Positions 5,670 through 54,189 are shown, counted from the stretch's first letter. The stretch: DNA of 64,000 bases from Gammaproteobacteria bacterium (GCA_027018875.1 JALUYA010000032.1:26567-90566); one strand, 5' to 3'. Numbers and translations: made by a program. Notes: a model not told the origin generated them from the letters alone.

Positions 5670-5808
5670 GGTTCAGCCCCCGCCGGTACAAACCGCCGCT
5701 CGGGGCGGCACCCCCTGGCGATAGGTTCGGAGTCCCGGTTGCGGTGCGGCCCCGGCGGATACCGGGGTCTCGATACCGGGCACCTTCATGACAATCGGTT
5801 TCCCCCGG

Positions 5809-31034: not shown

Positions 31035-32981
31035 TTAAGGGGTTTTGGAACCGGACCCACCCGTGCCGGTATTGGAGCCGGAATTAGTCCCGAAGTAATT
31101 GCTCAGGTAGGTTCCCGTCTGCTGCAACTGCGCCAGCGTCTGTTCCATCTGGTTGAACTGCGCCTGCAGCAGTTGGGTTTGCGCCTGCACATTCTGCTGC
31201 AGGGTGGAGATGCGCTGGTTCAGGCTGTCTATCGTTGAATTGATGCTGTTGGTAGCCGCCACAATCGCCCCGTTTTGGGTATCGAGCACATTGCTCAACA
31301 GGGGGTTGAGCTGCTGGTAGAGCCCACTGGAAACCGTAACCGAACCGATATTCCCGGTGGCCGCGCTGGTCAGGTTCAAGTTCAGGCCATAGGCCGCCCC
31401 GGTCCCCGTTACCTGCGCCTGCTGGCCGGTTCCGGTGGTGGCCTGGCCATTGACCGTTGCGACCACATCCACCCCCGTGCCCGTCAGCGTGGTGGTGCCG
31501 ATCCCGCTTTGCCCGGCAGCCGGCTGGTTCGATACCACGCTAAACTGCTGGCTGCTGCCATAGGCGGTGCTGTACAGCTTCAGGTATCCATTGCTGTTTA
31601 CCGCGGTGAGCCCATCGAGTCCCTGCTGGGTAAGCGCCGCGTTGATATCGCTGACGATAGTTCCGATGGTGCTCCCCGCGGCCAACGTAACCCCGACCGA
31701 GGTGGTACCCGAAGTGACAGTAAGGGTCTCGCTCGCGGCGATACCGCTTGCCGGCACCGCGCTCGAGCCGGTCAGGCTCGCCTGGCTGGCGGGAGTGGTG
31801 ACATCCACCGCATAGGTACCGGGCTGAGTCTGATCCCCGGCGGACACATACTGGATGCCGCTGCCGGTACTCGATCCGATGCGCCCGAACAGCCCGGCAA
31901 CCGCCGTGAAATTGTCCTGCAGCGCCGTGGTCAGGGTCCCGCTATCGAGGCTGAGGGTGCCATCCTGATTGATTGTCAACCCCACCGAGCCCAGCCCATT
32001 GTACTGGCTGCCCAGCGGGACTCCCTGGCCGAACCCGCTAATAGCATTGAGCAACTGCGTGCGCACCGATTGCACTTCGGGGTTCCCCAGCAGCGGTCCG
32101 GCGGTCTGGGTCGTGGCGTCATACTTGGTCAGGTCGTTGATGGTATTCATCGCCCCGTTGAAAGCAGTGACAAAGTCCTGGACCGCCTTGACCACGCTGC
32201 CGACATCCTGGCTGACCGTCAACGTCGCCGAGCCCGGCTGCAGCAACTGGATAGTGAGCCCCGGAACCGTGCCGGAAAGGGTATTGGTGGTGGAAGTAAC
32301 CGCGATGCCGTTGATGGTGGCGGCCGCATCCTGGGCCGCCGCGCTTTCGGTCATATTCTTGGTGGTGGCGTTATAGTTCAGGTCGGCAAGGCTCCCGGTG
32401 GCTCCCGAGACCGTCACGGTAAAGGCATTGGCGGCACCCGGCTGGGTTCCCGCCAGGGTGAGCCGATAACCGCTGCCGTCGTAAATAACCGCCGCCCTGA
32501 CCCCGGCGCCGGCACCGTTAATGGCGCTGGCGATGCCGTTGAGCGTATCGTTCGAGTTGTCGATGCTCAGGCTGAGCGGACTCCCCGAACCAACCTGAAT
32601 CTGTAGTGTTCCCGTGCCGACAACGGTCTGGTCGGCACTGGCGAAAGCGGCCGAATAAAGATCCTGGGCCTGCGCCAAGGCGGTAACCGACAGAGAATAG
32701 GCTCCCGGCGAGGCGGTATTGTCCACCGTAGCGGTGGCCACACCGGTGTTGGAACTGCTCACCGAGCGCTGGCTTAGCGTATTGATATTCGCCAGTCCGC
32801 CCAGGCCACTCTGCAACTGCGCCAGGCCGCTCTTGAAATTACCCCAGGCAGTGAGCTGCGCATTCTCCTGGGCCACCTGGGACTGGAGCTGCTTGATCGG
32901 CGCCTGATAAATCTGGGTCAGTTTTTGAATCAACTGGCCGGTATTGATGCCACTGATGATCCCGGGGATGGAAACGGTCAT
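31035..32981 (-). CDS. fliD: flagellar filament capping protein FliD (HAP2)
   Basis: 648 aa; N-terminal MTVSIPGIISGINTGQLIQKLTQIYQAPIKQLQ and C-terminal ...QNVQAQTQLLQAQFNQMEQTLAQLQQTGTYL coiled-coil regions typical of FliD. Confidence 0.9.
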   Translation of the reverse strand: MTVSIPGIISGINTGQLIQKLTQIYQAPIKQLQSQVAQENAQLTAWGNFKSGLAQLQSGLGGLANINTLSQRSVSSSNTGVATATVDNTASPGAYSLSVTALAQAQDLYSAAFASADQTVVGTGTLQIQVGSGSPLSLSIDNSNDTLNGIASAINGAGAGVRAAVIYDGSGYRLTLAGTQPGAANAFTVTVSGATGSLADLNYNATTKNMTESAAAQDAAATINGIAVTSTTNTLSGTVPGLTIQLLQPGSATLTVSQDVGSVVKAVQDFVTAFNGAMNTINDLTKYDATTQTAGPLLGNPEVQSVRTQLLNAISGFGQGVPLGSQYNGLGSVGLTINQDGTLSLDSGTLTTALQDNFTAVAGLFGRIGSSTGSGIQYVSAGDQTQPGTYAVDVTTPASQASLTGSSAVPASGIAASETLTVTSGTTSVGVTLAAGSTIGTIVSDINAALTQQGLDGLTAVNSNGYLKLYSTAYGSSQQFSVVSNQPAAGQSGIGTTTLTGTGVDVVATVNGQATTGTGQQAQVTGTGAAYGLNLNLTSAATGNIGSVTVSSGLYQQLNPLLSNVLDTQNGAIVAATNSINSTIDSLNQRISTLQQNVQAQTQLLQAQFNQMEQTLAQLQQTGTYLSNYFGTNSGSNTGTGGSGSKTP

Positions 32982-32992: not shown

Positions 32993-33445
32993 TCAAATCT
33001 TCGAATCCACAAATAACCCTGAACCCATGCCGTTGACCACCAGGCGCGCCACCACGGGCGAGGCCTGATCGGGCGGAATCCGAAAATAGACCTGGTGGGT
33101 CATGCGGTCTATCAACTGCAACACGATCCCGCTCCCTCCCTTGGCCCCGGATTCGCCGAGTCCGACCTGCAGTACCACGGCCGATCGTGGTGGGAAATGG
33201 GCCTGTACCTGCCTTGCCAATGCCTCGGCATGACGCAGTTCAGCCGCGGACGGAGCCGCGGATAGCGGGGACCGCCGGGCGCTCCGCGGGGCGCGTGCCC
33301 TCCCGTCGTCACGCTTGGTCTCCGACGCGATAACGGCTGTTCGGACGCCGCGGCGCGGAGCCTGGCCGGCAACGGCGGCGCCCGCGCGCGGTACCCCCGC
33401 TGCCGTGGGTTGCGGTGCGGGTTGAATGGTCACGGCATGAATCAT
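32993..33445 (-). CDS. flaG: flagellar protein FlaG
   Basis: 150 aa; C-terminal ...VLQLIDRMTHQVYFRIPPDQASPVVARL matches FlaG family core; position between fliC and fliD. Confidence 0.7.
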   Translation of the reverse strand: MIHAVTIQPAPQPTAAGVPRAGAAVAGQAPRRGVRTAVIASETKRDDGRARAPRSARRSPLSAAPSAAELRHAEALARQVQAHFPPRSAVVLQVGLGESGAKGGSGIVLQLIDRMTHQVYFRIPPDQASPVVARLVVNGMGSGLFVDSKI

Positions 33446-33514: not shown

Positions 33515-34990
33515 TCAGGGCAGCAGCTTGAGGAAGCTCTGCTGCAATGCATTGGCCTGCGCCAGGGTGGAAATACCCGCCTGTTGCAGAATCTGCTCGC
33601 GGGTCAACTGCGATGTGACCTGGGCGATATTGGCATCCTGGACCGTGGAACGCGCCGCGGTCAGGTTGGTCGCCGCCGTCTGCAAGTTGCTGGTGATGCT
33701 CTGAATGCGGTTTTGTATCGCGCCCAGTTGCCCCCCCTGCTGGTTGAGTGCCGAGATCGCAAAATCGACGATGCTGATCGCCTTGTTGGCTCCCTGCACC
33801 GTGCCGACATTCACGCTCGACACACTTTGCAACGTGCTCGCCGACGTTATCCCGATATTGCTGGCGCCGGAGGTGATCGCAAAGCCCTGGGTGGATTGCG
33901 CCGTCACCAGGCCCTGGAATAACCCGGTAGCGGATCCCGAGGTGATCGCGGTTCCCGTCCCGCCGGACGCCACCGCCGTCAAGCTGGTTCCGCTGACGCC
34001 GGTAAAGCCGGTGATGGAGATGTTCGCACCATTGGACTGGGTCAAAACCAGGTTGCCGTTGGCGTCCTCGCTCGCGGCGATACCGGTGGTGGCCGTGTTA
34101 TCGTTGACCGAGCTGATCAGCCCCTGCAGGTTGGTCGCGGTGATATTGACCGTATTCGTCTGCGCGGCGGTCGTACCGTTGCCCAATGTGAAGCTGATCG
34201 AGCTGCCGTTGAAGTTCGCCGTAAATGCAACGCTGGTCTTCGCCGCGGCGCTGACCCCGGTGTTCTCGGTCACCGCGTTGATGGAGGCGGCAATGCTTTG
34301 TGCGGACTCCGTCGCGGCGGTCACCGTGACGCTCTGGGTGCCGGTGGAGCCGGCAATCGTGACCGCCCCCGAGGTGAATGCCCCACCCGAGGTGGTCCCG
34401 GTAAAGGCCAGCCCATTCACCGTCGAACCCGACGTGCCACCGAACAGGGTGCTCCCTGCACCGGTTTCATTCACCCCGATCGACTTCGCGCTGGCATTGG
34501 CGATCGAAACATTGAGGATCTGGTTGGCGTTGGCGCCCACCTGAAACTGCTCGCCGGCAAAGTTCCCGTTCAAGATGTTCTGGCCGTTGAACTGGGTCTG
34601 CTGGGCGATGGTGTTGACCTGCGCGGTGAGTTGCCCCACCACGTTTTGCAGCGCCTGGCGGTCGGTGACGCTGTTCGAGCCGTTGGCCGCCTGCACCGCG
34701 ATGGTGCGGATCTTCTGCAGAATGTTGGTCTGCTGCTGAATGGCGCCGGTGGCGGTCTGGACCAGCGAAACGGCCTGGTTGGCATTGGAAATCGCCTGGT
34801 TCACCCCGTTAAGCTGGGTGGTGAACCGTTGCGCAATCGCGTAGCCGGCCGGATTGTCCGCCGGGCTGTTGATCTTCAGGCCCGTGGACAATTCCTCGAC
34901 CGCCCGATTCAAACCGGCGGCGGTGTTGTTGAGGGCGTTGCGTGCGAACAGCGCCCCCAGGTTGGTGTTGATTACCCCTGAAACTGCCAT
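33515..34990 (-). CDS. fliC: flagellin FliC
   Basis: 491 aa; conserved N-term INTNLGALFARNALNNTAAGLNRAVEELSTGLKINSPADNPAGYAIAQRF and C-term TREQILQQAGISTLAQANALQQSFLKLLP; Thr/Ser/Gly-rich variable middle; AAGGAG RBS 8 nt before ATG. Confidence 0.9.
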   Translation of the reverse strand: MAVSGVINTNLGALFARNALNNTAAGLNRAVEELSTGLKINSPADNPAGYAIAQRFTTQLNGVNQAISNANQAVSLVQTATGAIQQQTNILQKIRTIAVQAANGSNSVTDRQALQNVVGQLTAQVNTIAQQTQFNGQNILNGNFAGEQFQVGANANQILNVSIANASAKSIGVNETGAGSTLFGGTSGSTVNGLAFTGTTSGGAFTSGAVTIAGSTGTQSVTVTAATESAQSIAASINAVTENTGVSAAAKTSVAFTANFNGSSISFTLGNGTTAAQTNTVNITATNLQGLISSVNDNTATTGIAASEDANGNLVLTQSNGANISITGFTGVSGTSLTAVASGGTGTAITSGSATGLFQGLVTAQSTQGFAITSGASNIGITSASTLQSVSSVNVGTVQGANKAISIVDFAISALNQQGGQLGAIQNRIQSITSNLQTAATNLTAARSTVQDANIAQVTSQLTREQILQQAGISTLAQANALQQSFLKLLP

Positions 34991-35005
34991 GATTTCGCTC
35001 CTTAC

Positions 35006-38000
35006 TTAAGCGTTATATCGGCGTACCTGCCGGGATTCAATGGCGGGCGCCTCGCCCGCATCCCCTTTAACGGCACCCCGCGCGGGGACTTTAGAGCCCG
35101 GCAGCCAGGCGCCCAGCACCTCCTCCAGGTGATCCTCCAACAACCAGCGTTCGCGCACCAGCCGCTGCAGTTCACGCCCCTGCGCCGCGAGCGCCTCGGG
35201 CTCGGCCAGGCGTTCGCGGATGGCGCGGATCCAGTCGCGGCGGCGCGGACCCACCCGCGTGAGCGGCAACGCCCCCCGGTAGGCGACGACATCGCTGGCG
35301 ATCACCGGGTAGCCGCAGGCGCCATACTCGAGCAGGCGCAGGTTACTCTTGGCGGCATTGAATGGAGAGGCGGTGAGCGGCGCCAACGCGAGATCGAGCG
35401 CCAGCGCCCGCAGCGCCCGGGGGTAGGCGCCCAGCGGCACCGCCGGGTGTAACTCCTTCACGTAGCGCCGCAGCGGTTCGGGGCACATGCCGAAGAACAC
35501 CCAGTCCACCTCCCGCGCCAGGGCCTCGACCACGCCGGCGATCAGGGCCAGGTCGCCCGCATGGCCGATACCACCGGCCCAGCCGACACGGGGCCGGCGG
35601 GAGCCTATCGGCGCGGGAGGATCGAACGCCCCCCAAACGCTACGCGGCAGATAATTCGGCCTCACGACCACCTCCGGAGCCAAGTGCCCATAGGCCTCGG
35701 CCAGTGGCTCGGTGGCCACCACCAGGCGGTCACAGAGGCCCACGGCATCGCGCAAGCGGCGCATGATGTCGGCGGGAATCGTGCTTCGGTGGGCACTGGT
35801 AAGCGGCAGGTTGGAAATCAGATCATCCAGCTCGTAGCTGAGAAACGCCCGGCCGGTGCGACGATAGCGGCGGATCGCCTCGATCTGGTGATCCTCGAGC
35901 TGGCGCTGCAGCAGCACCGCCTGGGGTTGGACGCGCTCGATCTCGACCGCGTTGAGGGGAAGTTCGAAGCTCGCCTGCGCCTCGGCCAGCCCGGCGCCCA
36001 CCAGGGCCCGCGCCGGGGCCAGCACCCGGTACTCGCCGCAGCCCTGCCGATCCGCCGGGTGGCACAGGATCCGTGGCGGCGCCACCCGCGCCAGGTACCG
36101 CGGCGCCGGCAGTGCCGCCTCGGGCGTAAACCCCTTCCCGCGCAAACTAAGGTTTGGGTTATAGACCGGATCGGCCGCGATCCGCGGCAACCAGCGCGAC
36201 AGCATCACCCTGGATTCCTCACCAAACTGCGCCGACTGCCGGGTAGCGGAAACGCCTTCAACCTGGGATCGCTGGCTTTTCGAGCCTTCGTGAAGCAGGG
36301 TTGCATAGGGGGTATAGACCACGCGGCGGCCGCGGCGACGCAACTTGAGGCACAGGTCCACATCATTGAAAGCCACGGCCAGGTCGTCCTCATCCATGCC
36401 GCCCACAGCCAGGTAGTCCGCCCGGGAAAGCAGCAGGCAGGCCGCCGTGACCGCCGAGTAATCCTGGGCCAGCCGCGCCCGCCCGAAGTAACCGGGCGCA
36501 TCCGCCGCCAATCCGAGGAACGGATGATCCGCCGGCGCGCCGTCGCCGATGCCGAGCACCACCCCCGCGTGCTGCACCCGACCGCCGGGAAACAACAGCC
36601 GGGCGCCGACCGCGCCGACCCCGGGCTGCAGCACCCGGGCCAGCATCTCCCGCAGCCAGTCAGAATGCAGGGCCGCCGTGTCGTTGTTGAGCAACAGCAG
36701 GTATTCGCCCCGGGCGGCGGCGGCCCCGCGGTTGATCATGGCACTGAAGTTGAAGGGCCCGGGACAGGGCAAAACCCGCAGCTTCCCGTCGAGTTCCCGC
36801 GCCGCCGCGATCAGCCCGTCGAGGTACTGCCGGGCCTCGGGCTCTCGGCTGTCGTTGTCGAGCACGATCACCTCGAGGTCGGGATAGTCGGTGGCGCCGA
36901 GCAGGATTTCCAGGCAGCGCTGCAACTGCCCCACCTCGTCCCGCGTGGGAATCAGGATGGAAACCGGCGGTGTCCGCGGCAACGGGTAACACACCCGGAA
37001 GCTCGCCGGAAAGGGCCCGTCCCGGACGGTCGCGCCGGCGGCGGTGCGCGCCAGGTGCGCGCCGAGGGCGGCCCGCGCCGCCGCGATCATCTCCTCGATG
37101 CTCACTGCGCAGCGACGGGACTGGGCGTCGCGGTGATACAGAATATCCGGCAGGTGCACCAGGGTATCGCCCCCGGTATGCTCCCAGACTCGTAGCGCAA
37201 GATCGTAATCCTCGGCGCCGGGGTAGCGGTCATCCCAGCCCAGGTCCCCCAGAACGTCCTGGCGCACCAGCATCACCCCCCCCAGGTAGGGCATGCTGCG
37301 CAGCAGTTCGGGGTTGAAATCCGGCTTGTAGTGCGGGTTGACCCGCTGCCCCGAAGCCTCCAGCGTGTCCTCGTCGCTATAGAGCAGGGTCGCCCGCGGG
37401 TGTTCGGCGAGAAACCGGCGGCATAACCCGACCGCCTCCGGGTGCAGCCGGTCGCCGGCCTCGAGCAGCCCCACCCAGTGCTGCGGGTTGCGTGGCAATC
37501 CCGCGGAAAACGAATGCAGGGAAGCTTTTCCTGCGATCCGCCATTGGATCCGGGGGTCGGCCGCAACCTCATCCGCCGCCGGGCCGGCGGCCAGCACCGT
37601 CAGCCGCCAGTGACCATCGCCCTGGGCCAGCAAGCTGGCGACCGAGGCCCGGGCCGCTTTCTCACGCCCCGCAAGAGCGATACAGACCAGGTGAACCGCT
37701 CCCGCCCCGGCGGGAGCGGGGCTCGCCCGGACCGCCCGCTGCCACACGGCTTGATGCGCCCGCCACCGCGCATAGGCATCGGGCTCCGCCGCCTGCGCCC
37801 GGATGAAGGCCTCCCCCGCCTCGCGACACCAGTCCAACCCGGCGGAACGGTGACCGGGATGGTGCGCCTCTTCCACCAGGCAGCGCCAGGTTTCATACGC
37901 CGGATCGAGTGCCCCCGGCGCGGGCGCCGCCGCCCCGTCGCCGTGATGCCTCCAGGCCCCGTGCACCGCGGCCGCCGCCCGTTCGCGATCCAGTCCGGGA

Positions 38001-39583
38001 AGATCCAGCGCCGCCAGGGTGGCCCCCGGATCGCGCACCAAATCCTCGTACACCACGACCACCCGCGCCAGATCCGCCGTGTCCCGTTCGATCGCCAGCA
38101 TGTGCTCCAGCCACAGTGCCAGCGCCTGCTCGCGCTCCATGCCGTCGCGGCGGGCGAGCGAGGCGGCCACCGCCTCCGGGTGACGCACCACCACCACCGC
38201 CATTACCCGCGCGGCCGCCGCCTCGAGCAACGGCTTCCAGAACGGCAACAGACGCGCCATCCGCGGCTCCTTGAGGCCCCATAAACCGGTTCGTGCAACG
38301 GCTCGCGTGAGCGCCATGCGCGCCGCCGGGCAATAGGGCGCAAGGCCCGCGAGGGCCGCAGGATCGAGGTCCAGGCCCGGCGCGTCCCAGCGGCCGCCGC
38401 GCGCCGCAAGCAGCGCCTCGTCGATCTCCAGCAGCGACAGCGCCTCGTGATAGCCGCCCGGATTATCGGCCTGGGGCGGCAATTGTTCCGTCCCGAAATC
38501 GATGCCACCGGCCTCCAGCGCCGCGGCCATCGCCGAGGTGCCGCCGCGGTGCATACCCAGCACCACGACGGCGTGCCCGCGCCGGGCGCCGGGATGCCAG
38601 GCCTCCCGGGCGCGGGCGAAACTCTCCAGGTGCCCCGCCGTGCTTGCGGCCCAGGTATAACCCGACACCTGCTCCCGCCCGGCCCGGGCCAGCTCCTCGC
38701 GCCGCCCGCGCGACTCGCTCAACTGCCGCAACGCGGTGCCAATCCCCACCGGGTCGCGCGGATCGAAGCGCAGGTAAGCCTCGCCGTAGAGTTCGCGTAG
38801 CGCCGCTATATCGGCCGCCGCGACCGGACAGCCACAGGCCATCGCCTCGGCCACCGGCAAGGCGAAGGTCTCGTGCAGCGACGGGCACACCAGCGCCACC
38901 GCGGAGCGGTAGTAGGCGGCAAGATCCGCCGCGTCGAGCGCGCGGGCGATCAGGCGCACCCCCGCGGGGAGCGCGGGCCCGGCATAACCCGGCAGCACCA
39001 GGGTCAGCGGCAGCCGCCCACTAGCGGGCAGCCGGCACCAGGCATCGACCAGGCGGGCAATGTTCTTCTTCGGCTGCCACTGGGCCACGCAGAGCAGCCC
39101 GACCGCTTCCTCCCGCACCCGGCCGGCGGGCGTATAGACCCCTTGATCGATCCCGTGCGGGACGACATCGATTCGCGCCGCGGGAAAGCCGAGGTGGTGC
39201 ATCGCCTCGGCGGCCGCCGCCCGCGAGGGCGTGATCAGCCGATCGATGCGCCAGCGCCGCTGTACCCACGCAGCCAACTGGTGCAGTTGGCCCGCGGTAC
39301 CCCTCGCGGCCGCCGCCGGCGTGGCGTAGTAATCCTCGGGCGGAAGCGCCAACGGCCCGACCCCATGCAGGGTCACCACGGTGGGGCGGGCCGCCTCGAG
39401 CGGCGGTAACGCCCGGGGAAACAACCCACCGGCACAGTAGGGATCCCAGTACAGCTCGCCATCCCCGCCGGGGTGGACCTCGATCCCGCCTTCGCCGAGC
39501 CCGGCAACGATCCGGTCCCGGTAGACCGCGAGACTCAGGGGCACCGGCCCGGGCGCGGGCGCAAGCGTGATCCGTGCGGTCAT
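35006..39583 (-). CDS. 1525-aa multidomain glycosyltransferase: GT4 (GT-B) - sulfotransferase-like P-loop domain - GT2 - GT2 - C-terminal GT-B domain; predicted flagellin glycan assembly enzyme
   Basis: Single uninterrupted ORF. aa 1-330 GT4-like (ETFALPVAEAMACGCPVAAAD). aa ~335-545 sulfotransferase-like (5'PSB-like VLGMHRGGTS, 3'PB-like VVRHPEAVAASL). aa ~600-830 GT2 (LYSDED). aa ~860-1090 canonical GT2 (VSILIPTRD, DNDS, NNDT, GGMDE...AFNDVDLCLKLRRRG). C-terminus GT-B (EYGACGYPVIASD). Sits between flgL and fliC. Confidence 0.8.
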   Translation of the reverse strand: MTARITLAPAPGPVPLSLAVYRDRIVAGLGEGGIEVHPGGDGELYWDPYCAGGLFPRALPPLEAARPTVVTLHGVGPLALPPEDYYATPAAAARGTAGQLHQLAAWVQRRWRIDRLITPSRAAAAEAMHHLGFPAARIDVVPHGIDQGVYTPAGRVREEAVGLLCVAQWQPKKNIARLVDAWCRLPASGRLPLTLVLPGYAGPALPAGVRLIARALDAADLAAYYRSAVALVCPSLHETFALPVAEAMACGCPVAAADIAALRELYGEAYLRFDPRDPVGIGTALRQLSESRGRREELARAGREQVSGYTWAASTAGHLESFARAREAWHPGARRGHAVVVLGMHRGGTSAMAAALEAGGIDFGTEQLPPQADNPGGYHEALSLLEIDEALLAARGGRWDAPGLDLDPAALAGLAPYCPAARMALTRAVARTGLWGLKEPRMARLLPFWKPLLEAAAARVMAVVVVRHPEAVAASLARRDGMEREQALALWLEHMLAIERDTADLARVVVVYEDLVRDPGATLAALDLPGLDRERAAAAVHGAWRHHGDGAAAPAPGALDPAYETWRCLVEEAHHPGHRSAGLDWCREAGEAFIRAQAAEPDAYARWRAHQAVWQRAVRASPAPAGAGAVHLVCIALAGREKAARASVASLLAQGDGHWRLTVLAAGPAADEVAADPRIQWRIAGKASLHSFSAGLPRNPQHWVGLLEAGDRLHPEAVGLCRRFLAEHPRATLLYSDEDTLEASGQRVNPHYKPDFNPELLRSMPYLGGVMLVRQDVLGDLGWDDRYPGAEDYDLALRVWEHTGGDTLVHLPDILYHRDAQSRRCAVSIEEMIAAARAALGAHLARTAAGATVRDGPFPASFRVCYPLPRTPPVSILIPTRDEVGQLQRCLEILLGATDYPDLEVIVLDNDSREPEARQYLDGLIAAARELDGKLRVLPCPGPFNFSAMINRGAAAARGEYLLLLNNDTAALHSDWLREMLARVLQPGVGAVGARLLFPGGRVQHAGVVLGIGDGAPADHPFLGLAADAPGYFGRARLAQDYSAVTAACLLLSRADYLAVGGMDEDDLAVAFNDVDLCLKLRRRGRRVVYTPYATLLHEGSKSQRSQVEGVSATRQSAQFGEESRVMLSRWLPRIAADPVYNPNLSLRGKGFTPEAALPAPRYLARVAPPRILCHPADRQGCGEYRVLAPARALVGAGLAEAQASFELPLNAVEIERVQPQAVLLQRQLEDHQIEAIRRYRRTGRAFLSYELDDLISNLPLTSAHRSTIPADIMRRLRDAVGLCDRLVVATEPLAEAYGHLAPEVVVRPNYLPRSVWGAFDPPAPIGSRRPRVGWAGGIGHAGDLALIAGVVEALAREVDWVFFGMCPEPLRRYVKELHPAVPLGAYPRALRALALDLALAPLTASPFNAAKSNLRLLEYGACGYPVIASDVVAYRGALPLTRVGPRRRDWIRAIRERLAEPEALAAQGRELQRLVRERWLLEDHLEEVLGAWLPGSKVPARGAVKGDAGEAPAIESRQVRRYNA
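35015..35045 (-). promoter_or_regulatory. possible sigma28-type -10 element (GCCGATAT) for fliC embedded in the 3' end of the glycosyltransferase ORF
   Basis: Minus strand reads ...TTGAATCC-N11-GCCGATAT-AACGCTTAAGTAAGGAGCGAAATC-ATG; -10 matches GCCGATAA 7/8, -35 weak; only 15 bp separate the GT stop and fliC ATG. Confidence 0.3.
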
Positions 39584-40896
39584 GGTTGTTCATCCTCCCG
39601 CCGCACCTGCCACAGCGTGGTGCCGCGATAGCGCAACAGGGCCGTCCCCGGCGGGGCACCGGCGCGGGCCAGGGTAGTGCTCAAGGGCTCGTGCCATGCG
39701 GTAATAGCACCGGCGTATTCTCCCGTGGGTTGGGTCTCGAAGCCGGCCACCAGCAGACACCGGCCGGTACACCGCCACAGGTGTTCGACGAAGGCGGTGT
39801 AGGCCGCCCGCTCGTGCTGGTGAATCAGAACATCGAGGCAAACCACCAGGTCCGCCGCCGGTGCGGTCTTTGCCCAGGCCAGGAAATCGCCGGCGACGAA
39901 GCCAAGATCGGGCCACTTCCGGCGTAATCGCTCAATTTGCTCCTCGGCGACATCGATCCCGGTATAGCGGGCTCCCCGCGGCAACGCGACGGATTCCCAC
40001 AAAACCCGATCACCACAGCCGACGTCGAGAATTGAATCGGGCGCGACCTCGTGCATAACGCGTGCAAGACACGCCTTTTTCTGCCGCCCCACGGAACCGC
40101 GCGAGCCAAGGCCCGAGCCCAGCTCGGGGTTTATTCGGTAGCGATCATTCCAGAAGCGGCGGTTATCGAACACCGCCCCCTCCCAAGGCGCAGCCACGCC
40201 GGCGGGAAGCCTCCGCCCGGGGGCGGCGAGCACCCGTACCACCGCGCGGGAGCGCTCGAGGGTGCCCCGACCGTCGCTATCGAGAAGCAATTCGCTCCAA
40301 CCACCGGGCAATGGGGTGGAATCCACGTCGCAAGTCAGAATGGGCTTGAACCGCCGCCAGGCGGGCAGTCGTCGAAGCAGATCGAGCCAGTCGGCCAGGC
40401 GCGTGCACCGCACCCAATCCACCGCATCCGGCACCGCGGCATCCGCACGATCGAGTTCGATATAGCGCACCGCGGATTGAGCCTCGACGCGGCGTAGAAT
40501 TTCGCGCCATGGCGTCACCCCACGCGCCAGCCCGGCAATGGCGACGGGCCCGTCCGCGTGGGTGGCGAGACGAAAGGTAAGCGGATCCCCATACAGATCG
40601 ATAACCCCGCGCCCGCGCAACCGCGAGGCAAGCTGTGCCTCGATCCGCGCCCGCGGGGACGGCGGACACAGAAACCGCATTGCCAGTTGCGCATCGAGCA
40701 GCGGGATACGGGCATGATCTTCTCCCCAGCTCCACTCGATCTCCGCACCATAGGCATGCAGGGTGGCAAACTCGGCGGCGGCCGCGGCCAACCCGGTGGC
40801 CTCCTCGGTGAAAGCCGCCTCGCGCCGGGCCCAGGCAAGCACGGTCTGTACATAGGCCAGCGCCCCCTGCGCGGCACCGGGACGGGGAGCCGTCAT
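39580..40896 (-). CDS. two-domain protein with C-terminal class I SAM-dependent methyltransferase (predicted flagellin-glycan methyltransferase)
   Basis: 438 aa; C-terminal ILDVGCGDRVLWESV...ARYTGIDVAEEQ...DLVVCLDVLIH SAM-MTase motifs; ~250 aa N-terminal domain unassigned; ATGA overlaps with flgL (40893-40896) and with the GT gene (39580-39583). Confidence 0.7.
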   Translation of the reverse strand: MTAPRPGAAQGALAYVQTVLAWARREAAFTEEATGLAAAAAEFATLHAYGAEIEWSWGEDHARIPLLDAQLAMRFLCPPSPRARIEAQLASRLRGRGVIDLYGDPLTFRLATHADGPVAIAGLARGVTPWREILRRVEAQSAVRYIELDRADAAVPDAVDWVRCTRLADWLDLLRRLPAWRRFKPILTCDVDSTPLPGGWSELLLDSDGRGTLERSRAVVRVLAAPGRRLPAGVAAPWEGAVFDNRRFWNDRYRINPELGSGLGSRGSVGRQKKACLARVMHEVAPDSILDVGCGDRVLWESVALPRGARYTGIDVAEEQIERLRRKWPDLGFVAGDFLAWAKTAPAADLVVCLDVLIHQHERAAYTAFVEHLWRCTGRCLLVAGFETQPTGEYAGAITAWHEPLSTTLARAGAPPGTALLRYRGTTLWQVRREDEQP

Positions 40897-42155
40897 GGCA
40901 GATAGTTGAACAACGACAGACTCTGCATCTGCACAAACGCCTTGGAGGCCGCCTGCAGGGCAAGGGAGGCCTGGTCGAGCCGGGTGATGACCTGCGGCAG
41001 ATTGGCGTCCTCGAGCCCGGAGCGAATCTGCTTGAACTGCGTCTGCACGGACTGATTGACCTGGGCCGCCGTCTGCGCCGCCTGAATCCGGGTGCCCACG
41101 GCCGCCTGGGTCGATCCGAGACGCGTCTGGGCCTGATCCAGGGACTCGATCACGGTATTGATTGCCTGCATGTTGCGGGCATTCTGGGCCGGCGACGCGG
41201 CCGCCGAAGTCAGCGCGGAATGCAGGTTAAGCAGCGTCTTGAACAGGCTTTGCCCGCGGCTGGGGTTGAGATCGAAGGTATCTCCCGAGGCGGGGTTACC
41301 GGCGAAATTGATCGCCAGGCCATCGAAATTGATCGTCGCCCCCGCGCTGAAGCTCCCGCTGGCCACCTGGGTTGCTCCAGCGTTCCAGCCCGCGCTCCCG
41401 ACCGCACCCGGGCCTCGCATTACGCTATAGTTCAATCCCCCCGAACCGCTGCTGAAGCGTATTTGATAACTGTCGCCGTTGGCCTGCAGGTAGGTGGCGG
41501 CCTGTACCGGATCGGTTACATTTCCCGCCGCGGTCGCCGTTCCGGTATTGGTGCTTCCCGCCTCGATGCTGAAGGTTCCGTTCCCGTCCGCAATGTTCAT
41601 GAACAGGGCGTTTCCCGGATCGCTAACCGGAATGGACTCCCCACTCGATATGGGTAAACTGCGCTGCCCGCCATCGCCGTAGTACTCGACCTGCGTCCCG
41701 CCGTTGTTCAAGGCAAACGGCTGGACATGGGTACGGCTGCCGGCGAACAGGTATTCTCCTCCCGGCCCCTGGGCATTGGCATAGCCGATCAATTGATCGA
41801 GATAGCTCTGCACGATCGCCGCGCCGTTGCGCCGATCCTGAAGGCTCAAGGTGCCATTGGCCATTTGCAGGGCCAGCGTCCGCACCCGGTTGACCAGCGT
41901 CGTCACGCTCTGCAACTGCGTGCTTTCATACCCGAGGGATTGCTGGGCATTGTCGGCGTTCCGGGCCCAGCCGCCGAAACGCTCGAGCGCCGTGTCGAGC
42001 CCGATCACCCGGGCCGCCGCGGCCGGCGCATCGGAGGGGCGGTTGATTTTCCGGCCACTGGAAAGCTGCTGATAATCGCTGTTGATGCGTGACTGCTGCT
42101 CGAGAATGCCGTTAATGGCAATCTGGTAAATTTGGCTGGTGCTGAAACGAATCAT
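40893..42155 (-). CDS. flgL: flagellar hook-associated protein 3 FlgL
   Basis: MIRFSTSQIYQIAINGILEQQSRINSDYQQLSSGRKINRPSDAPAAAARV... and C-terminal ...LEDANLPQVITRLDQASLALQAASKAFVQMQSLSLFNYL flagellin-like termini. Confidence 0.85.
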   Translation of the reverse strand: MIRFSTSQIYQIAINGILEQQSRINSDYQQLSSGRKINRPSDAPAAAARVIGLDTALERFGGWARNADNAQQSLGYESTQLQSVTTLVNRVRTLALQMANGTLSLQDRRNGAAIVQSYLDQLIGYANAQGPGGEYLFAGSRTHVQPFALNNGGTQVEYYGDGGQRSLPISSGESIPVSDPGNALFMNIADGNGTFSIEAGSTNTGTATAAGNVTDPVQAATYLQANGDSYQIRFSSGSGGLNYSVMRGPGAVGSAGWNAGATQVASGSFSAGATINFDGLAINFAGNPASGDTFDLNPSRGQSLFKTLLNLHSALTSAAASPAQNARNMQAINTVIESLDQAQTRLGSTQAAVGTRIQAAQTAAQVNQSVQTQFKQIRSGLEDANLPQVITRLDQASLALQAASKAFVQMQSLSLFNYLP

Positions 42156-42157
42156 GA

Positions 42158-44119
42158 TCACAGACTCAAAATGGAATTGAACAGTTGCGCGGCAATACCG
42201 ATGGACTTGGCCGCCGCCTGAAACGCCTGCTGGTAACGCAACATATCGGCCGCTTCCTGGTTCAGGTTGACGCCGGAAATGCTTTGCTGCGCCTGCTGCG
42301 CCTGGTTCAAGGTCGCCTGCTCGGCGTTCGCGGCCAATTTGGCCTGTTGCCCGGCATTGCCCACCATGCCGGTGAGATTGGCATAGGCCTGGCTGAAGCT
42401 CTCGCTGCCGTTTCCCAGGGTTTGTGCCTGGGCCAGGGCACCCATCGCCAGGGCATTGCGATTATCCCCGGATCCGGCCGGTTGCAATACAAAACTATCC
42501 AGGGTTTTCGGCGCGCTACCCGAGAGGGTTACCTGCCAGTAATGTCCCGCCGGTGCCGGGGGCGAAGGATAGGCCACTGCCAGGGTCGCACCCGAACTAT
42601 AGCTCCCGCTGGCGACCACGCCGCTCGCATCGGAAACCTGGTAGCTGCCGGGTGCCGTGAACTGTAACGTTAACGTCTGGCCGAACTCGGCGGCTGGAAG
42701 CACGGTGGCACCGACGGCGGGCGAAGTCACCACCTGCCCCGGTGAAATCGTCACGTTCCCGGTATTGGTATTGCTCAAGCTCCCGTTCACCAGGCGGCCC
42801 GGACTGGCAACATAGGGCAGAGCGGCGGCCACGGTATTGGGATCCGCCAGCACGGCCTGGATGCCGGTGGCGGCACCGGCCGTGGGTTTTAGCAGGAACC
42901 GGTCACCGTTGGCGGGAGTCCCGCTCACGGTGACGCTCAAGCCGTCGAAGCTCAGCGTGTTGCCGCTCACGGTTGGGCTCACACTCTGCCGGCCCGGCCA
43001 GGTCTGTACTGTCCAGTTTCCGCCCTGGTATTGCAGCTCGTAATTCGCGCCGGTGATTTTTGTGCTATCGGCAAGGGTCGCGGTCAGAATGGCACTGCCG
43101 GTGTTATTGTCGGCGGCGCCGACCTGCGGCGCCGGCACGGCAAACAGAGGCGGCCCGGAGATCCCATTCAGGTCGATACCCAGACTCTGCTGGCGGTTGA
43201 GGTCGGCGCCGACGGCCACGGCGATTTGCCCCAGCGAATTTTGCGCCTGGGCGATGGTGTCCCGGGCGGCGAACAGGCCGCCGAGGGTGCCTCCGGAAAT
43301 GCCGTTCGAGACCACCGCGCCGGAAGGCGCGTAAACCACATCGAGATTTTGCCCGTCCAGGTCGTTGGGCCGGGTCGCCAACTGAAATGCCTTGGAACCG
43401 GCCACCAACGCCTGCCCATTGGCCGTAAACACGCTGTAGCTACCTTGAGATTGCTGCAGCACCGATACCCCGACGAGTTGATTAAGCTGGGTGATCAGGT
43501 GGTCGCGCTGATCCAGCAGGCCGTTGGGCTGCGACGCCCCGGAAGGCTGGCTCGCCCCGCCGATTTCCACGTTCAGCCGGGCGATCTGGGCGGTCAGGGT
43601 ATTCACTTGATCCACGCTACCCGTGATCTGGTCATTGATATTCCGGCGCAGGGAGCGGATGGCCCCGCCGATGGCATTGAAGCGATTGGCCAGCGTGGCT
43701 GCCGCCGACACCACCGCCTGGCGTTCGGTGGCCCCGGAGGGATTACCGGCCAGGTTGCGCAGCGCCTGAAAAAACCCGGACAGGGCGGGAGTCAGATTGA
43801 CCCCGGAAGTTGACAGTATATTGTTCAACTGCGCCATCGAGGTCTGGCGCTGCGCCGCCGCCGCCGATCCCGCCGTCGCCTGCCACAGGCGGGTTTGCGC
43901 AAACTGACTGAAGTTTCGCGTGATCGCGGTAACTTCTACCCCCGAGCCCTGGATAACGCCCGTCTGCCCGTAAGGGACCTGCGGCGCCTGGATCACCGTC
44001 TCGCGGCTATAGCCGGGGCTGTTCGCATTGGCGATATTGTTGCCGGTCGCGGCCAGTCCGGCCCGCGCCGCATCCAATGCCGAGAGGGCGATTCGCGACA
44101 AGGAACTGATGGAACTCAT
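42158..44119 (-). CDS. flgK: flagellar hook-associated protein 1 FlgK
   Basis: 653 aa; MSSISSLSRIALSALDAARAGLAATGNNIANANSPGYSRETV... and C-terminal ...SGVNLNQEAADMLRYQQAFQAAAKSIGIAAQLFNSIL. Confidence 0.9.
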   Translation of the reverse strand: MSSISSLSRIALSALDAARAGLAATGNNIANANSPGYSRETVIQAPQVPYGQTGVIQGSGVEVTAITRNFSQFAQTRLWQATAGSAAAAQRQTSMAQLNNILSTSGVNLTPALSGFFQALRNLAGNPSGATERQAVVSAAATLANRFNAIGGAIRSLRRNINDQITGSVDQVNTLTAQIARLNVEIGGASQPSGASQPNGLLDQRDHLITQLNQLVGVSVLQQSQGSYSVFTANGQALVAGSKAFQLATRPNDLDGQNLDVVYAPSGAVVSNGISGGTLGGLFAARDTIAQAQNSLGQIAVAVGADLNRQQSLGIDLNGISGPPLFAVPAPQVGAADNNTGSAILTATLADSTKITGANYELQYQGGNWTVQTWPGRQSVSPTVSGNTLSFDGLSVTVSGTPANGDRFLLKPTAGAATGIQAVLADPNTVAAALPYVASPGRLVNGSLSNTNTGNVTISPGQVVTSPAVGATVLPAAEFGQTLTLQFTAPGSYQVSDASGVVASGSYSSGATLAVAYPSPPAPAGHYWQVTLSGSAPKTLDSFVLQPAGSGDNRNALAMGALAQAQTLGNGSESFSQAYANLTGMVGNAGQQAKLAANAEQATLNQAQQAQQSISGVNLNQEAADMLRYQQAFQAAAKSIGIAAQLFNSILSL

Positions 44120-44125: not shown

Positions 44126-44494
44126 CTACCCCTTGGCCAGGGTCGATCCGGCGGCCGGGGTCGCCCCATACACCGGCAAGCGACTCCGCCGGGCCAATGT
44201 CCGCTGGAGCCCCGCCAAGCGTTCATTCACCATTTCAAGGTTCCGCCGATTGGCCCGATACAGCTCGCGCGCCCGGCGCTCGAGTTCGACCGGGACCCGG
44301 GCCGCGCCGGGCGGCGCCTCCGCCACCCGGCGCCGGCTTACGGCCTCCAGGCGCGCCAACAGTTCGGCCCGGCGGGCAATAAACGGGGAAGCCTGCATCG
44401 CGTTTTCCCTGGCGAGCCAGGCGCTTTCCGCGTCCAGTAATTCGATCAGCGCCTCGATCAGGGCCGACTCCCGGGCGATCTCTGCGGCGGCCAT
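44126..44494 (-). CDS. hypothetical coiled-coil protein, FlgN-like (second FlgN-family paralog inserted between flgJ and flgK)
   Basis: 122 aa; GGGGAG RBS 5 nt before ATG; LIEALIELLDAESAWLARENAMQ...LLARLEAV pattern resembles FlgN export-chaperone family but canonical flgN lies after flgM at 53107. Confidence 0.45.
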   Translation of the reverse strand: MAAAEIARESALIEALIELLDAESAWLARENAMQASPFIARRAELLARLEAVSRRRVAEAPPGAARVPVELERRARELYRANRRNLEMVNERLAGLQRTLARRSRLPVYGATPAAGSTLAKG

Positions 44495-52789: not shown

Positions 52790-53110
52790 TTGTCACGCAT
52801 AGATCTCGTCAACGAACTGCTCCAGAGCGGTTCCGTCCGCACCCAGGCGAAATCCGCACGGCCCGCCACCACCGCCAAGGCCCGCGGTGATGCCCCGGGG
52901 CACAAATCCGGCGTGGAAATCCAGCTTTCGGCGGCGGCGCATCAACTGGTGGCAAACCAGGGAGCCCCGCTGGACAGCCGGCACGTCGAGGCCGTCCGCG
53001 CCGCGATGCAACAAGGCCGATACCTCATCGACAGCGCCGCCCTCGCCCGGAAGATGACCACCACCATCCTGGAAACTCTCGGGCTCCCAGGGGAAAGCGG
53101 TTCGTCATGA
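52790..53110 (+). CDS. flgM: anti-sigma-28 factor FlgM
   Basis: 106 aa from TTG with GGAGGAG RBS 9 nt upstream; C-terminal VEAVRAAMQQGRYLIDSAALARKM matches FlgM sigma28-binding helix. Confidence 0.75.
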   Translation: MSRIDLVNELLQSGSVRTQAKSARPATTAKARGDAPGHKSGVEIQLSAAAHQLVANQGAPLDSRHVEAVRAAMQQGRYLIDSAALARKMTTTILETLGLPGESGSS

Positions 53111-53508
53111 CCTCCCGCCGTCTCCGCCCGGAACACCGCGAAGGATTGCTGGCGCTGGAGCAGATGCTGGAGGCGGAACGCGTGGCCCTGGTCAACGCCG
53201 ATTATGACCGGCTGCAAAGCCTTTCCGAGGAGAAGATCCGCCTGCTGGGATGGCTGGAAAAGATTCTCGGCGAGGAATTTTCCGGCGACGATGTACTCGC
53301 CGGCGACACCGACTGGAAACAATTTCTCGGCGCGCTGGCCGAAGCCCGGCAGAAGAACCGGGAAAACGGCGCCCTTATCAGCCGCATGCAGGACTTTGTC
53401 CGCGAAGCCCTGGCGGTATTGCGGGGAACGGACGGCGACAGCGCCTACGATGCGCACGGAAGCGCCGACCAGGCCTGCATAAAAAGCCACACCCTGGGCC
53501 GGGCCTGA
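53107..53508 (+). CDS. flgN: flagellar export chaperone FlgN
   Basis: 133 aa; LLALEQMLEAERVALVNADYDRLQSLSEEKIRLLGWL... FlgN family pattern; overlaps flgM stop and csrA start. Confidence 0.7.
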   Translation: MTSRRLRPEHREGLLALEQMLEAERVALVNADYDRLQSLSEEKIRLLGWLEKILGEEFSGDDVLAGDTDWKQFLGALAEARQKNRENGALISRMQDFVREALAVLRGTDGDSAYDAHGSADQACIKSHTLGRA

Positions 53509-53738
53509 TGTTTGTACTCAGCCGCAGGATCGGCGAAGCCATTCGCATCGGCGACATCCGGGTGGTCGTTACCCGCATCTCGGGAAAACAGGTGCGGCTG
53601 GGGTTTAAAACCCCCACCGGGCTGCGGGCGTACCGGGCGGAGCTGTATGCCGCCATCGAGGCCGATAACCGCGCCGCGCAACGCGTCACCCCCCAACTAC
53701 TGGATTACTGGACGAAACATGACAACGCAACGGATTGA
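53508..53738 (+). CDS. csrA: carbon storage regulator CsrA (flagellar-type, FliW-partnered)
   Basis: 76 aa MFVLSRRIGEAIRIGDIRVVVTRISGKQVRLGFKTPTGLRAYRAELYAAIE... vs canonical MLVLTRRVGETLMIGD...; ATG overlaps flgN stop (TGATG); extended C-terminus. Confidence 0.85.
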   Translation: MFVLSRRIGEAIRIGDIRVVVTRISGKQVRLGFKTPTGLRAYRAELYAAIEADNRAAQRVTPQLLDYWTKHDNATD

Positions 53739-54189
53739 GACGGCCTTCGGCCCCATCGAAGTACGGCCCGGGCAGCTTTGGAGCATCGCCGGCAGCCTGG
53801 CCGGGTTTCCCGAACTGCGTCATTTCGTGTTGCTCGATGTCGCCTGCCACCGGCCGTTGGTCTGGCTCCAGGCCATTGAAGACCCGTCGGTCTGCTTCGC
53901 CCTTGCCGCCCCGGCGACCTTTTCCCTGGCCTACCCGCCGGTACCCACCGAAGCCTTGTTCGGAACGCCCGCCGCCGAGACCCTGCTGATGCTGATGGTT
54001 ATCCTGGAGCGGCAGGGCCAAGGCCGGATCGTGCCCCAGCCACATCGCCTGGCCCCCTTGTGTTTCGACCTGCGGCGCAAGCGCCTGACCCAGTGGATTC
54101 TCGCCAACCCCCGGGCAGTTACCACCATCACTTTCCCCGTGACGCAAGTCCCCGCGCCGCCGCTGGAACCCATCGCCGTCAACGCCTAG
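53720..54189 (+). CDS. fliW: flagellar assembly factor FliW
   Basis: 156 aa MTTQRIETAFGPIEVRPGQLWSIAGSLAGFPELRHFVLLDVA...PLVWLQAIEDPSVCFALAAPATF matches FliW (DUF180); overlaps csrA 3' end by 19 nt. Confidence 0.8.

Follow-up and report, generated by a model that had tools for sequence, protein, structure and literature searches.

The two genes lying between flgL and fliC in the DNA analyzed here (64,000 nucleotides from a gammaproteobacterium, hereafter the window) are best explained as a two-gene flagellin O-glycosylation island with a modular enzyme of the FgtA family, a reading to which we give a probability of about 0.8; that the 1525-aa and 438-aa genes belong among the FgtA-family flagellin glycosylation islands is itself highly probable. 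The system is of a known type, and what is new here is its sulfotransferase-carrying version.

Organization of the flgL-fliC interval

The window comes from an organism known only from metagenome assemblies. On its minus strand the gene order is flgK, flgL, the 438-aa gene, the 1525-aa gene and fliC, with the following features:

40893-42161, minus strand: flgL, hook-filament junction protein (Pfam Flagellin_N, E 5e-17)
39580-40896, minus strand: 438-aa ORF, methyltransferase gene
40156-40896, minus strand: residues 1-247 of the 438-aa protein, orphan N-terminal domain without Pfam match (pLDDT 30-60)
39583-40155 (stop codon 39580-39582), minus strand: residues 248-438, class I SAM-dependent methyltransferase domain (Methyltransf_25, Foldseek)
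35006-39583, minus strand: 1525-aa ORF, multi-module sugar-transferase
38594-39583, minus strand: module 1, residues 1-330, GT4-type GT-B (Pfam GT4/GT1 models, EX7E motif)
37949-38593, minus strand: module 2, residues 331-545, PAPS-type sulfotransferase, ST (PF13469, motifs, model pLDDT ~90)
37724-37948, minus strand: residues 546-620, short helical linker (three helices in the model, without Pfam match)
37004-37723, minus strand: module 3, GT2a, residues 621-860, divergent GT-A (family profile, Foldseek, conservation)
36176-37003, minus strand: module 4, GT2b, residues 861-1136, canonical GT2 (Pfam GT2, motifs)
35096-36073, minus strand: module 5, GTBc, residues 1171-1496, C-terminal GT-B (two-Rossmann GT-B fold found)
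35006-35095, minus strand: residues 1497-1525 and stop codon, disordered C-terminal tail (pLDDT <50)
35067-35093, minus strand: sigma-28-type promoter-like site TAAAGTCC-N11-GCCGTTAA, about 77-103 nt upstream of the fliC ATG
33515-34990, minus strand: fliC, flagellin, the presumed substrate (Pfam Flagellin_N, E 3e-37; Flagellin_C, E 2e-17)

Pfam also recognised flgK and fliD near the island, and ORF calls together with these neighbours bear out the two genes that the initial annotation had placed in the flgL-fliC slot. The ATGA overlaps it reported at 40893-40896 and 39580-39583 can be read directly in the sequence and are real, since the stop codon of flgL runs into the start codon of the 438-aa gene in CTGCCATGACGG and a stop/start overlap of the same kind joins the 438-aa and 1525-aa genes in CAACCATGACC. 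Judging from these overlaps, flgL and the two island genes may be translationally coupled; the island closes the flgK-flgL transcription unit on its 3' side and directly precedes fliC. The giant ORF is kept as one ORF of ~1516-1569 aa in 8 other clusters (37-87% identity), therefore we rejected an origin by chance in G+C-rich DNA as well as one by assembly fusion. Glycosylation of the Maf or nonulosonic-acid type was likewise rejected, as Pfam matches in the island and its neighbouring genes included no Maf-type transferase and no pseudaminic or legionaminic acid genes.

The adjacent flagellin has the Ser/Thr-rich variable region expected of a substrate by the initial annotation: FliC residues 146-400 include 79 Ser/Thr (31%) and a single Tyr in the translation. 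The fliC gene starts 15 nt past the stop codon of the glycosyltransferase gene, behind an AAGGAG ribosome-binding site. The promoter-like site within the coding region of the C-terminal tail is the sole match in the window to TAAA-N14-16-GCCGWTAW (0.01 expected by chance); it is kept in the related locus L081 and largely in L082, and the DNA of the tail region (35006-35095) is conserved in blocks in both. The last codons of the glycosyltransferase gene likely serve also as promoter region for fliC and as the beginning of a probable leader.

Modules of the two proteins

The division of the 1525-aa protein into GT4, sulfotransferase-like, two GT2 and C-terminal GT-B modules, with boundaries at ~330, 545, 850 and 1100, came with the initial annotation; all five modules are supported by Pfam, profile or fold evidence, the boundaries are essentially right, and an HMM domain search on the translation returned both GT4 (E 1e-19) and GT2 (E 1e-18) matches. 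GT4 lies at residues 63-312 with three models above the Pfam cut-offs of 26-28.5 bits (Glyco_trans_1_4, E 1.3e-19, 71.3 bits; Glycos_transf_1, E 5e-16, 59.1 bits; Glyco_transf_4, E 7e-11, 42.9 bits) and an intact EX7E motif (E238-x7-E246); structure modelling began after residue 329, and this assignment comes from sequence.

Of the two domains annotated as GT2, the second is indeed a canonical GT2 with a GT-A fold (residues 872-1103, E 1e-18, 63 bits, above cut-off; LDNDS 908-912, LNNDT 965-969, NDVDLC 1073-1078), whereas the first is a divergent GT-A domain. As a single sequence GT2a gives only E 0.003, but its family profile matches the GT-A (A2) domain of the chondroitin polymerase K4CP (E 1.8e-11), and GT2a plus GT2b align by Foldseek with the tandem GT-A polymerases PmHS2, K4CP and LARGE1 (E about 1e-15), which together identify a GT-A fold. 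The position aligned to LDSDD of K4CP reads EAGD (AGD, 708-711), so that the canonical DXD is absent from GT2a, as is the usual nucleotide-binding Asp motif; for this reason the domain may be non-catalytic. Conserved in it are YSDED 735-739, 25 residues past the DXD position, and KPDFN 753-757. GTBc is the best-conserved part of the family (RVGWAGG 1332-1338, DWVFFGMCP 1360-1368, K1412, E1419), and across the modules the catalytic-type motifs are intact, the DXD position of GT2a being the exception.

The ST module of the window protein alone scores 24.6 bits with Sulfotransfer_3 (PF13469, residues 339-526), below the cut-off of 27, and contains GMHRGGTS 343-350, KEPR 438-441 and RHPEAVAASL 467-476. 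We take the first and third of these, GMHR[S/G]GTS and R-H-P-x-x-V-A-x-S in general form, to be the 5'-phosphosulfate loop and the 3'-phosphate strand-helix of PAPS binding. A PDB sequence search gave no solved sulfotransferase relative of the module, nor was there a solved sulfotransferase among the 50-60 fold matches listed, which come mostly from the larger GT domains; a scan of large ORFs over the greater part of the 64 kb gave no gene for PAPS or nucleotide-sugar synthesis. If the module were inactive, purely structural or served by another donor, the flagellin glycan would be unsulfated. We consider this unlikely: PF13469 is matched by 26 of 28 homologous ST domains (best E 1.2e-9) and Sulfotransfer_1 by 6 of them, and the two general motifs are invariant or nearly so in the 28 sequences, which come from distant lineages, thus arguing for selection on catalysis. 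Since the FgtA-type enzyme carries an ST module here, the island predicts a flagellin O-glycan that is sulfated as well as methylated. No report of a sulfated sugar on bacterial flagellin was found in the literature searched, where such filament sulfation appears only in archaea.

In the case of the 438-aa protein, described earlier as a two-domain methyltransferase, one half is a SAM methyltransferase and the other an orphan domain of unassigned fold. Methyltransf_25 matches residues 284-376 (E 2.6e-10; 41.3 bits, cut-off 27), the glycine-rich SAM loop is DVGCGD at 291-296, and the domain model (pLDDT ~90) gives Foldseek matches to ChlM (E 1e-9), RedM and NodS (E 1e-9 to 1e-7). Nothing recognisable in Pfam falls within residues 1-247, and only 5 representatives below E 1e-10 were found among 1.84 billion proteins. 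This orphan domain is seen only beside the present GT subtype, and in loci L084-L087 it forms a stand-alone gene of 231-233 aa before it. A relationship to the GT8-like N-domains of other methyltransferase-domain homologues was discarded (hhalign probability 0.13%, essentially none).

FliB is the flagellin lysine methylase of Salmonella. Modification of flagellin itself in a similar manner, instead of the glycan, would suit the closeness of the 438-aa gene to fliC, and the generic small-molecule methyltransferase fold does not reveal the substrate. This is nonetheless very improbable: Pfam matched generic class I methyltransferase families and no FliB-type family, and FliC residues 146-400 hold just 2 Lys and no Arg. 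Moreover, the islands at L084-L087 have the N-domain alone, an FkbM methyltransferase gene takes the place of the 438-aa gene in a sister lineage, and 17 of 44 family members fuse a methyltransferase to the glycosyltransferase. Being dispensable, replaceable or fused in this way is the pattern expected for glycan tailoring. A FliB-type lysine methyltransferase was thus rejected, the centre of FliC also being devoid of a Lys-rich domain.

Homology to FgtA and proposed mechanism

The fgtA gene of P. aeruginosa PAO1 sits in the flgL-fliC glycosylation island, the slot with which the interval had been compared from the start. The likeness is one of true homology: BLASTP aligned window residues 641-1495 with residues 861-1684 of PAO1 FgtA (PA1091, about 1685 aa) at 39% identity (873 columns, E 1.3e-123), using an FgtA sequence machine-read from the PDF supplement of PMC11833859, in which small errors are possible. 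L081 (85% identity), L082 (49%), L084-L087 and L088 share the gene order flgK-flgL-(small gene)-megaGT-fliC-fliD.

At least 3805 protein clusters, mostly 1150-1700 aa long, make up the family defined by the GT2a-GT2b-GTBc core, and flagellar genes lie within 8 kb at 56 of 80 family loci from other species, with none within that distance at about 20. N-terminal modules are interchangeable: besides the methyltransferases already mentioned, the 44 members carry GT2 (16), GT1/GT4 (10) or RgpF (9) modules, and also sulfotransferase and GT9. The fusion of so many folds had been called unusual, which is only partly right in view of the size of the family, the length of FgtA and the frequent ST-core fusions of Stellaceae; what is rare is the precise combination GT4+ST+core (9 clusters). 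FgtA-type enzymes thus form a very large modular family with a constant three-domain core and swappable tailoring modules.

The tandem GT-A pair resembles polysaccharide polymerases, and ST, GT2a and GT2b are 33-40% identical to a protein of an Azotobacter vinelandii O-antigen cluster, as would be expected if the enzymes acted on O-antigen or exopolysaccharide and their flagellar placement were incidental. We give very little credence to this, because the full core including GTBc, which the Azotobacter protein lacks, is homologous to FgtA, an enzyme needed for flagellin glycosylation; the flgL/fliC synteny is kept down to 49% identity and across classes; and ORF calls and Pfam placed no transporter, flippase or lipid-carrier gene within the island.

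If flagellin is the substrate, it would be glycosylated while still in the cytoplasm, ahead of its passage through the flagellar export machinery. The core would join the first sugar to Ser/Thr in the surface-exposed middle part of FliC. Rhamnose or another deoxyhexose is the probable sugar, as hinted by the RgpF fusions within the family, by the 33-40%-identity homologue in an rmlBDAC cluster and by Fgt1 of P. syringae, a rhamnosyltransferase acting on Ser (PMC3927599). Priming could be performed by GT2a or GTBc, possibly both; GT2b would then extend the glycan by one sugar and the GT4 module by another, in an order that is conjectural, and the short chain would receive its sulfate and methyl groups from the sulfotransferase and methyltransferase. 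This module-by-module scheme, sulfation included, is tentative, with a chance somewhat short of even.

FgtA offers a concrete hypothesis on which domain does what. Flagellin is unglycosylated in a pa1091 mutant, and the PAO1 flagellin glycan contains a single deoxyhexose (PMC11833859). FgtA keeps 16 of 17 conserved positions in GT2a and 71 of 78 in GTBc, but only 39 of 56 in GT2b, where it lacks the catalytic-motif residues D909, N910 and N966-N967-D968 that are intact in the window protein; its GT2 Pfam score is 26 bits, compared with 63 bits. Since an enzyme adding one deoxyhexose has lost the GT2b motifs and retains GT2a and GTBc, we hypothesize that GT2b is dispensable for the first sugar, which would be primed by one of the other two.

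The same comparison bears on whether every GT fold transfers a sugar. FgtA retains both GT2a and GTBc and adds one sugar, so at least one of them seems unneeded for transfer there; together with AGD at the DXD position of GT2a, its missing nucleotide-binding Asp, and the replacement of the first Glu of the GT4 EX7E in some relatives (read from printed sequences), this would suit non-catalytic scaffolds, notably GT2a or GTBc, and a glycan with fewer sugars than GT folds. Against it, invariant polar residues are kept in GT2a (D711, D737, H810) and GTBc (R1332, H1341, K1412, E1419), and EX7E is intact in the window protein; we thus regard scaffolding as a minority possibility and retain catalytic modules in the scheme.

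In ABC-transporter-type O-antigen systems (WbdD/WbdA, WbbB) a terminal-modifying domain is joined to polymerising GT domains. A speculative, rather improbable extension is that the FgtA-family core is an O-antigen-type assembly unit re-targeted to protein, in which the GT-A pair would extend a rhamnan-like chain on flagellin Ser/Thr, the N-terminal modules would cap it as those terminal modifiers do, and the orphan domain would be an adaptor between enzyme and flagellin. Were this so, the flagellin O-glycan of the organism would be the first in bacteria to be described as capped by sulfate. Capping would fall here to the sulfotransferase, with help from a separate methyltransferase, and elsewhere to a methyltransferase, to FkbM or to a TagF-like phosphotransferase.

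Motility, surface charge and recognition by phages and the immune system are all influenced by flagellin glycans, whose chemistry has been worked out in only a few species. Current understanding is not overturned by any of these findings; the testable prediction made by the island is a bacterial flagellin whose O-glycan bears both sulfate and methyl groups.

Comparison with known systems

The best structural matches of GT2a plus GT2b are K4CP, the heparosan synthase PmHS2 and LARGE1 (~560-640 aligned columns, E 1e-15 to 1e-12), although at no more than 11-14% identity; long alternating polymers are the products of the known enzymes, and the DXD is absent from GT2a here. The GT-B protein Ser O-glycosyltransferases of Gram-positive bacteria (GtfA, SdgB) are also among the closest known systems.

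In the A. vinelandii protein WP_302228542 the ST domain (GMHRSGTS, KDPR) likewise precedes the tandem GT-A pair, both being shared with the window protein at the identity given above, and its gene lies within an rmlBDAC-wzm-wzt O-antigen cluster. Unlike the window protein, the Azotobacter enzyme lacks GTBc and the GT4 module, and has ~450 residues between ST and the GT pair in place of three short helices; a faint SlyX Pfam match suggests a coiled coil in that stretch. Its substrate is presumably a lipid-linked glycan instead of a protein, and the shared module suggests a possible origin of FgtA-type enzymes.

Large flagellin glycosyltransferases encoded upstream of fliC are also known from P. 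syringae (Fgt1/Fgt2 and VioT, the last 1173 aa long) and from P. aeruginosa PAK (OrfN); Rha-based O-glycans on flagellin Ser are their products, with methylated sugars also present (PMC3927599). Judging from homologues of the genus Pseudomonas in the same position (L062-L068), Fgt1/Fgt2, VioT and OrfN of P. aeruginosa PAK (a-type) would belong to the same family; their systems differ from the window island in having separate sugar-biosynthesis islands and no sulfotransferase.

In FgtA of PAO1 (b-type) the whole GT2a-GT2b-GTBc core is homologous. The PAO1 island includes three further genes, pa1088-1090, for a phospho-dimethylthreonine donor (PMC11833859), compared with only the orphan-domain/methyltransferase gene here. 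Both enzymes are giant multi-module proteins with an accessory module adding an anionic group to the sugar, this being a TagF-like phosphotransferase (Glyphos_transf) in FgtA, and GT4 plus the predicted sulfotransferase instead in the window protein.

Gene order, composition and expression of the island

The giant modular glycosyltransferase (megaGT, 1525 aa) and the 438-aa protein are encoded between flgL and fliC, in the order displayed below.

Genes of the flagellar region (positions in the window, strand, identity and basis)
42158-44119, minus strand, flgK (Pfam)
40893-42161, minus strand, flgL (Pfam)
39580-40896, minus strand, 438-aa ORF (ORF call)
35006-39583, minus strand, 1525-aa ORF (ORF call)
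33515-34990, minus strand, fliC (Pfam)
32993-33445, minus strand, 150-aa ORF between fliC and fliD (ORF call)
31035-32981, minus strand, fliD (Pfam)

Direct reading of the gene junctions gave CTGCCATGACGG and CAACCATGACC, so that the ATGA stop/start overlaps described in the initial annotation, one between flgL and the 438-aa gene and the other between this and the 1525-aa gene, are indeed present; because of these overlaps both island genes are probably co-transcribed with flgKL. The fliC ATG lies 15 nt past the megaGT stop codon and is preceded by an AAGGAG ribosome-binding site. The giant ORF represents a genuine gene, since it is retained as a single ORF of ~1516-1569 aa in 8 other protein clusters, with 37-87% identity; the closest assembly is GCA_054033315.1 (85% identity). 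The 150-aa ORF had no Pfam or NCBIfam match; it occupies the usual place of FlaG-like proteins, a position kept in the syntenic relatives L081 (66% identity) and L082. Another small ORF (122 aa, 44126-44494, minus strand) lies between flgJ and flgK, and its counterpart in the sister lineage L088 displays a faint FlgN match.

Although the G+C content of the island is 0.70-0.73, versus 0.61-0.65 in the flanks, a horizontally transferred island was rejected: third-position GC is equal in the two island genes (0.73-0.84) and the flanking flagellar genes (0.75-0.83), and the excess, found at codon position 1, reflects amino-acid composition. Base composition therefore gives no hint that the genes arrived recently by transfer.

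Regarding fliC expression, a sigma-28-type promoter-like site, TAAAGTCC-N11-GCCGTTAA (35067-35093, minus strand), was located within the last 29 megaGT codons (35009-35095), which encode residues predicted to be disordered in the structure model. It is the sole match in the window (0.01 expected by chance), L081 keeps it and L082 keeps most of it, which makes it probable that fliC is transcribed from a promoter of its own within the megaGT gene. Conservation in the presumed fliC leader (34991-35060, minus strand) exceeds that of the coding DNA beside it: L081 and L082 share the blocks CCGCCATTGAA, CCGGCAGG and CGCTTAAGTAAGGAGCG, and this conservation persists in L082, where megaGT protein identity is 49%. 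The leader folds no better than shuffled sequence (z = -1.1), Rfam detected no RNA element in the window, leader included, and terminator and sigma-70 scans of the island gave nothing above chance. On the plus strand, a csrA-like ORF, MFVLSRRIGEAIRIGD, was found inside ORF 53250-53738, followed by fliW (PF02623; region about 53500-54189); the translations of ORFs 52790-53110 and 53107-53508 (both plus strand) read as FlgM-like and FlgN-like, respectively. Because the csrA-like ORF directly precedes fliW, flagellin translation may be under CsrA/FliW control, in which case the conserved, GGA-containing leader of fliC would be a candidate target.

Modules of the two island proteins

Pfam was run on the whole 1525-aa protein and on pieces of it, and was combined with family profiles and an AlphaFold2 model of residues 330-1525 (mean pLDDT 89.5, pTM 0.85). 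The three approaches, the model within its own range, agreed on five modules, bearing out the glycosyltransferase/sulfotransferase make-up first proposed for this protein; four of them are listed here, and the fifth is the C-terminal GT-B module, GTBc, whose profile found no meaningful solved relative by sequence.

Modules of the 1525-aa protein (residues, module, basis)
1-330, GT4: three Pfam models over their cut-offs; E238-x7-E246 intact
331-545, sulfotransferase (ST): Sulfotransfer_3 in homologues, plus conserved motifs
621-860, GT2a, divergent GT-A: family profile against K4CP
861-1136, GT2b, canonical GT2: Pfam; LDNDS and LNNDT conserved

The GT2a profile matches the second GT-A domain of chondroitin polymerase K4CP (E 1.8e-11); it shows AGD at the position of the DXD motif, with conserved YSDED and KPDFN further on. 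In Foldseek, GT2a and GT2b jointly gave alignments of 560-640 columns to PmHS2, K4CP and LARGE1, which are tandem GT-A polymerases.

Taken alone, the ST module of the window protein scores 24.6 bits with Sulfotransfer_3, for which the cut-off is 27, and 26 of 28 homologous ST domains match this model (best E 1.2e-9). The motifs GMHR(S/G)GTS, K(D/E)PR and R-H-P-x-x-V-A-x-S-L show little or no variation across these domains, and we take them to be the 5'-phosphosulfate loop and the 3'-phosphate-binding Arg/Ser element. Searching PDB sequences with the ST profile gave no solved relative even at E 10, and no sulfotransferase structure appeared among the fold-search matches listed, these lists being filled by the larger glycosyltransferase domains.

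In the 438-aa protein, a class I SAM methyltransferase domain (model pLDDT ~90) spans residues 248-438 and was matched by Foldseek to ChlM, RedM and the sugar N-methylase NodS with E values of 1e-9 to 1e-7; these fold matches leave its substrate unspecified. Methylation of flagellin lysines is unlikely, because the part of FliC that is exposed contains just 2 Lys and lacks Arg. Residues 1-247, here called the orphan domain, had no Pfam match and a low-confidence model. A GT8-like domain, whose profile found no solved relative by sequence, stands before the methyltransferase domain in most homologues; a decayed form of it was considered for the orphan domain and rejected, given an hhalign probability of 0.13%, the low-confidence model and the recovery of only its own clade in an exhaustive search. 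This profile search of 1.84 billion representatives returned only five proteins below E 1e-10, two of them stand-alone (228-231 aa). Moreover, in loci L084-L087 of other genomes the gene between flgL and the GT4-ST-core enzyme (the core being GT2a-GT2b-GTBc) encodes the orphan domain only (231-233 aa), without methyltransferase, which argues that this glycosyltransferase subtype has the orphan domain as its constant companion, the methyltransferase being optional; our guess would be an adaptor or specificity factor. The slot before megaGT varies between close relatives, and in L088 it holds an FkbM methyltransferase gene (5138-6001).

The predicted glycan and modules shared with an O-antigen enzyme

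Taken together, the island predicts a flagellin O-glycan that is both sulfated and methylated, which is the new point of this system; the literature searched for sulfated flagellin glycans offered no bacterial example, only the sulfated N-glycans of Halobacterium. Among the large ORFs scanned, which take up most of the window though not the whole of it, the remaining ones were housekeeping, chemotaxis and flagellar genes, and none was for sugar-nucleotide or PAPS synthesis, so the genome must supply the donors from other loci.

A 1179-aa protein of Azotobacter vinelandii, which has no GTBc, shares 33-40% identity with the ST module and the GT-A pair; its gene directly follows rmlBDAC, wzm and wzt, an ABC-transporter-type O-antigen cluster (L090, CP092752.2, 1702381-1719920). 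This protein is a candidate sulfate-capping O-antigen polymerase, and, by this comparison, GTBc may be what sets the flagellin-linked family apart. The position of the Azotobacter homologue in an rml cluster supports deoxyhexose (rhamnose) as the donor sugar of the GT-A pair; the RgpF fusions described below also favour it, as does P. syringae Fgt1, which transfers rhamnose (PMC3927599). By analogy with O-antigen synthesis, the N-terminal tailoring modules might serve to terminate the chain, but this seems doubtful, because only three short helices separate ST and GT2a in the window protein, whereas the Azotobacter protein has a long spacer between ST and the GT-A pair.

Relationship to FgtA and other flagellin glycosyltransferases

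The initial annotation had likened this locus to the glycosylation island of Pseudomonas, and the likeness proved to be true homology: megaGT residues 641-1495 align by BLASTP with residues 861-1684 of FgtA (PA1091), the flagellin glycosyltransferase of P. aeruginosa PAO1, with 39% identity over 873 columns (E 1.3e-123). A pa1091 mutant has unglycosylated flagellin, and the b-type glycan consists of one deoxyhexose with phospho-N,N-dimethylthreonine (PMC11833859). The FgtA sequence was machine-read from the PDF supplement of PMC11833859, thus single differences may be errors.

When FgtA was added to the core alignment and the positions with 90% or higher conservation across the family were counted, it retained 16/17 in GT2a and 71/78 in GTBc, but only 39/56 in GT2b. 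The GT2b changes fall at catalytic-type motifs (D909A, N910S, N966G, N967A, D968G, Q1004R, H1005E and H1098Q), and this clustered loss is not a PDF-reading error; the GT2 Pfam score, 26 bits for FgtA versus 63 bits for the window protein, fits it. Because PAO1 flagellin carries a single sugar while the GT2b motifs of FgtA are lost, the simplest reading of these sequences would be that GT2b adds a second sugar, being dead in PAO1 FgtA and intact in the window protein, while attachment of the first sugar to Ser/Thr would fall to GT2a or GTBc.

The core profile recovered at least 3805 protein clusters at E <= 1e-20 (8000 candidates scored). Listed family members are mostly 1150-1600 aa long, the smallest (817-900 aa) being the core alone. 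Across 82 loci of other genomes the core gene usually adjoins flgL or fliC, with flagellar genes less than 8 kb away in 56/80. The region N-terminal of the core is variable, and among 44 members it carries methyltransferase domains (17-18), an extra GT2 (15-16), GT1/GT4 (9-10), RgpF (9), Sulfotransfer_3 (4), and GT9, FkbM or TPR (2 each). Stellaceae as a rule have the ST fused to the core without GT4 (~28 loci), and the GT4-ST-core arrangement was found in nine clusters (P0001-P0008 and P0223). Some loci of Gammaproteobacteria MAGs (L058, L061, L067) have two tandem GT2a-GT2b-GTBc cores or frames of up to ~2665 aa, so the family takes in enzymes that are larger still or duplicated.

Identity between the window and L082 is 81% for flagellin, 49% for megaGT and ~39% for the 438-aa protein; divergence is much faster in the modifying enzymes than in the flagellin they would act on.

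The fusion had also been called unusual, a claim which holds only for this exact combination of modules and is weakened for large glycosyltransferase fusions as such, since the reference enzyme is even larger: FgtA (~1685 aa) carries a TagF-like phosphotransferase domain before the same core. The first observation is thus borne out and its interpretation was right in kind, and the island is a variant of a kind of system already known.
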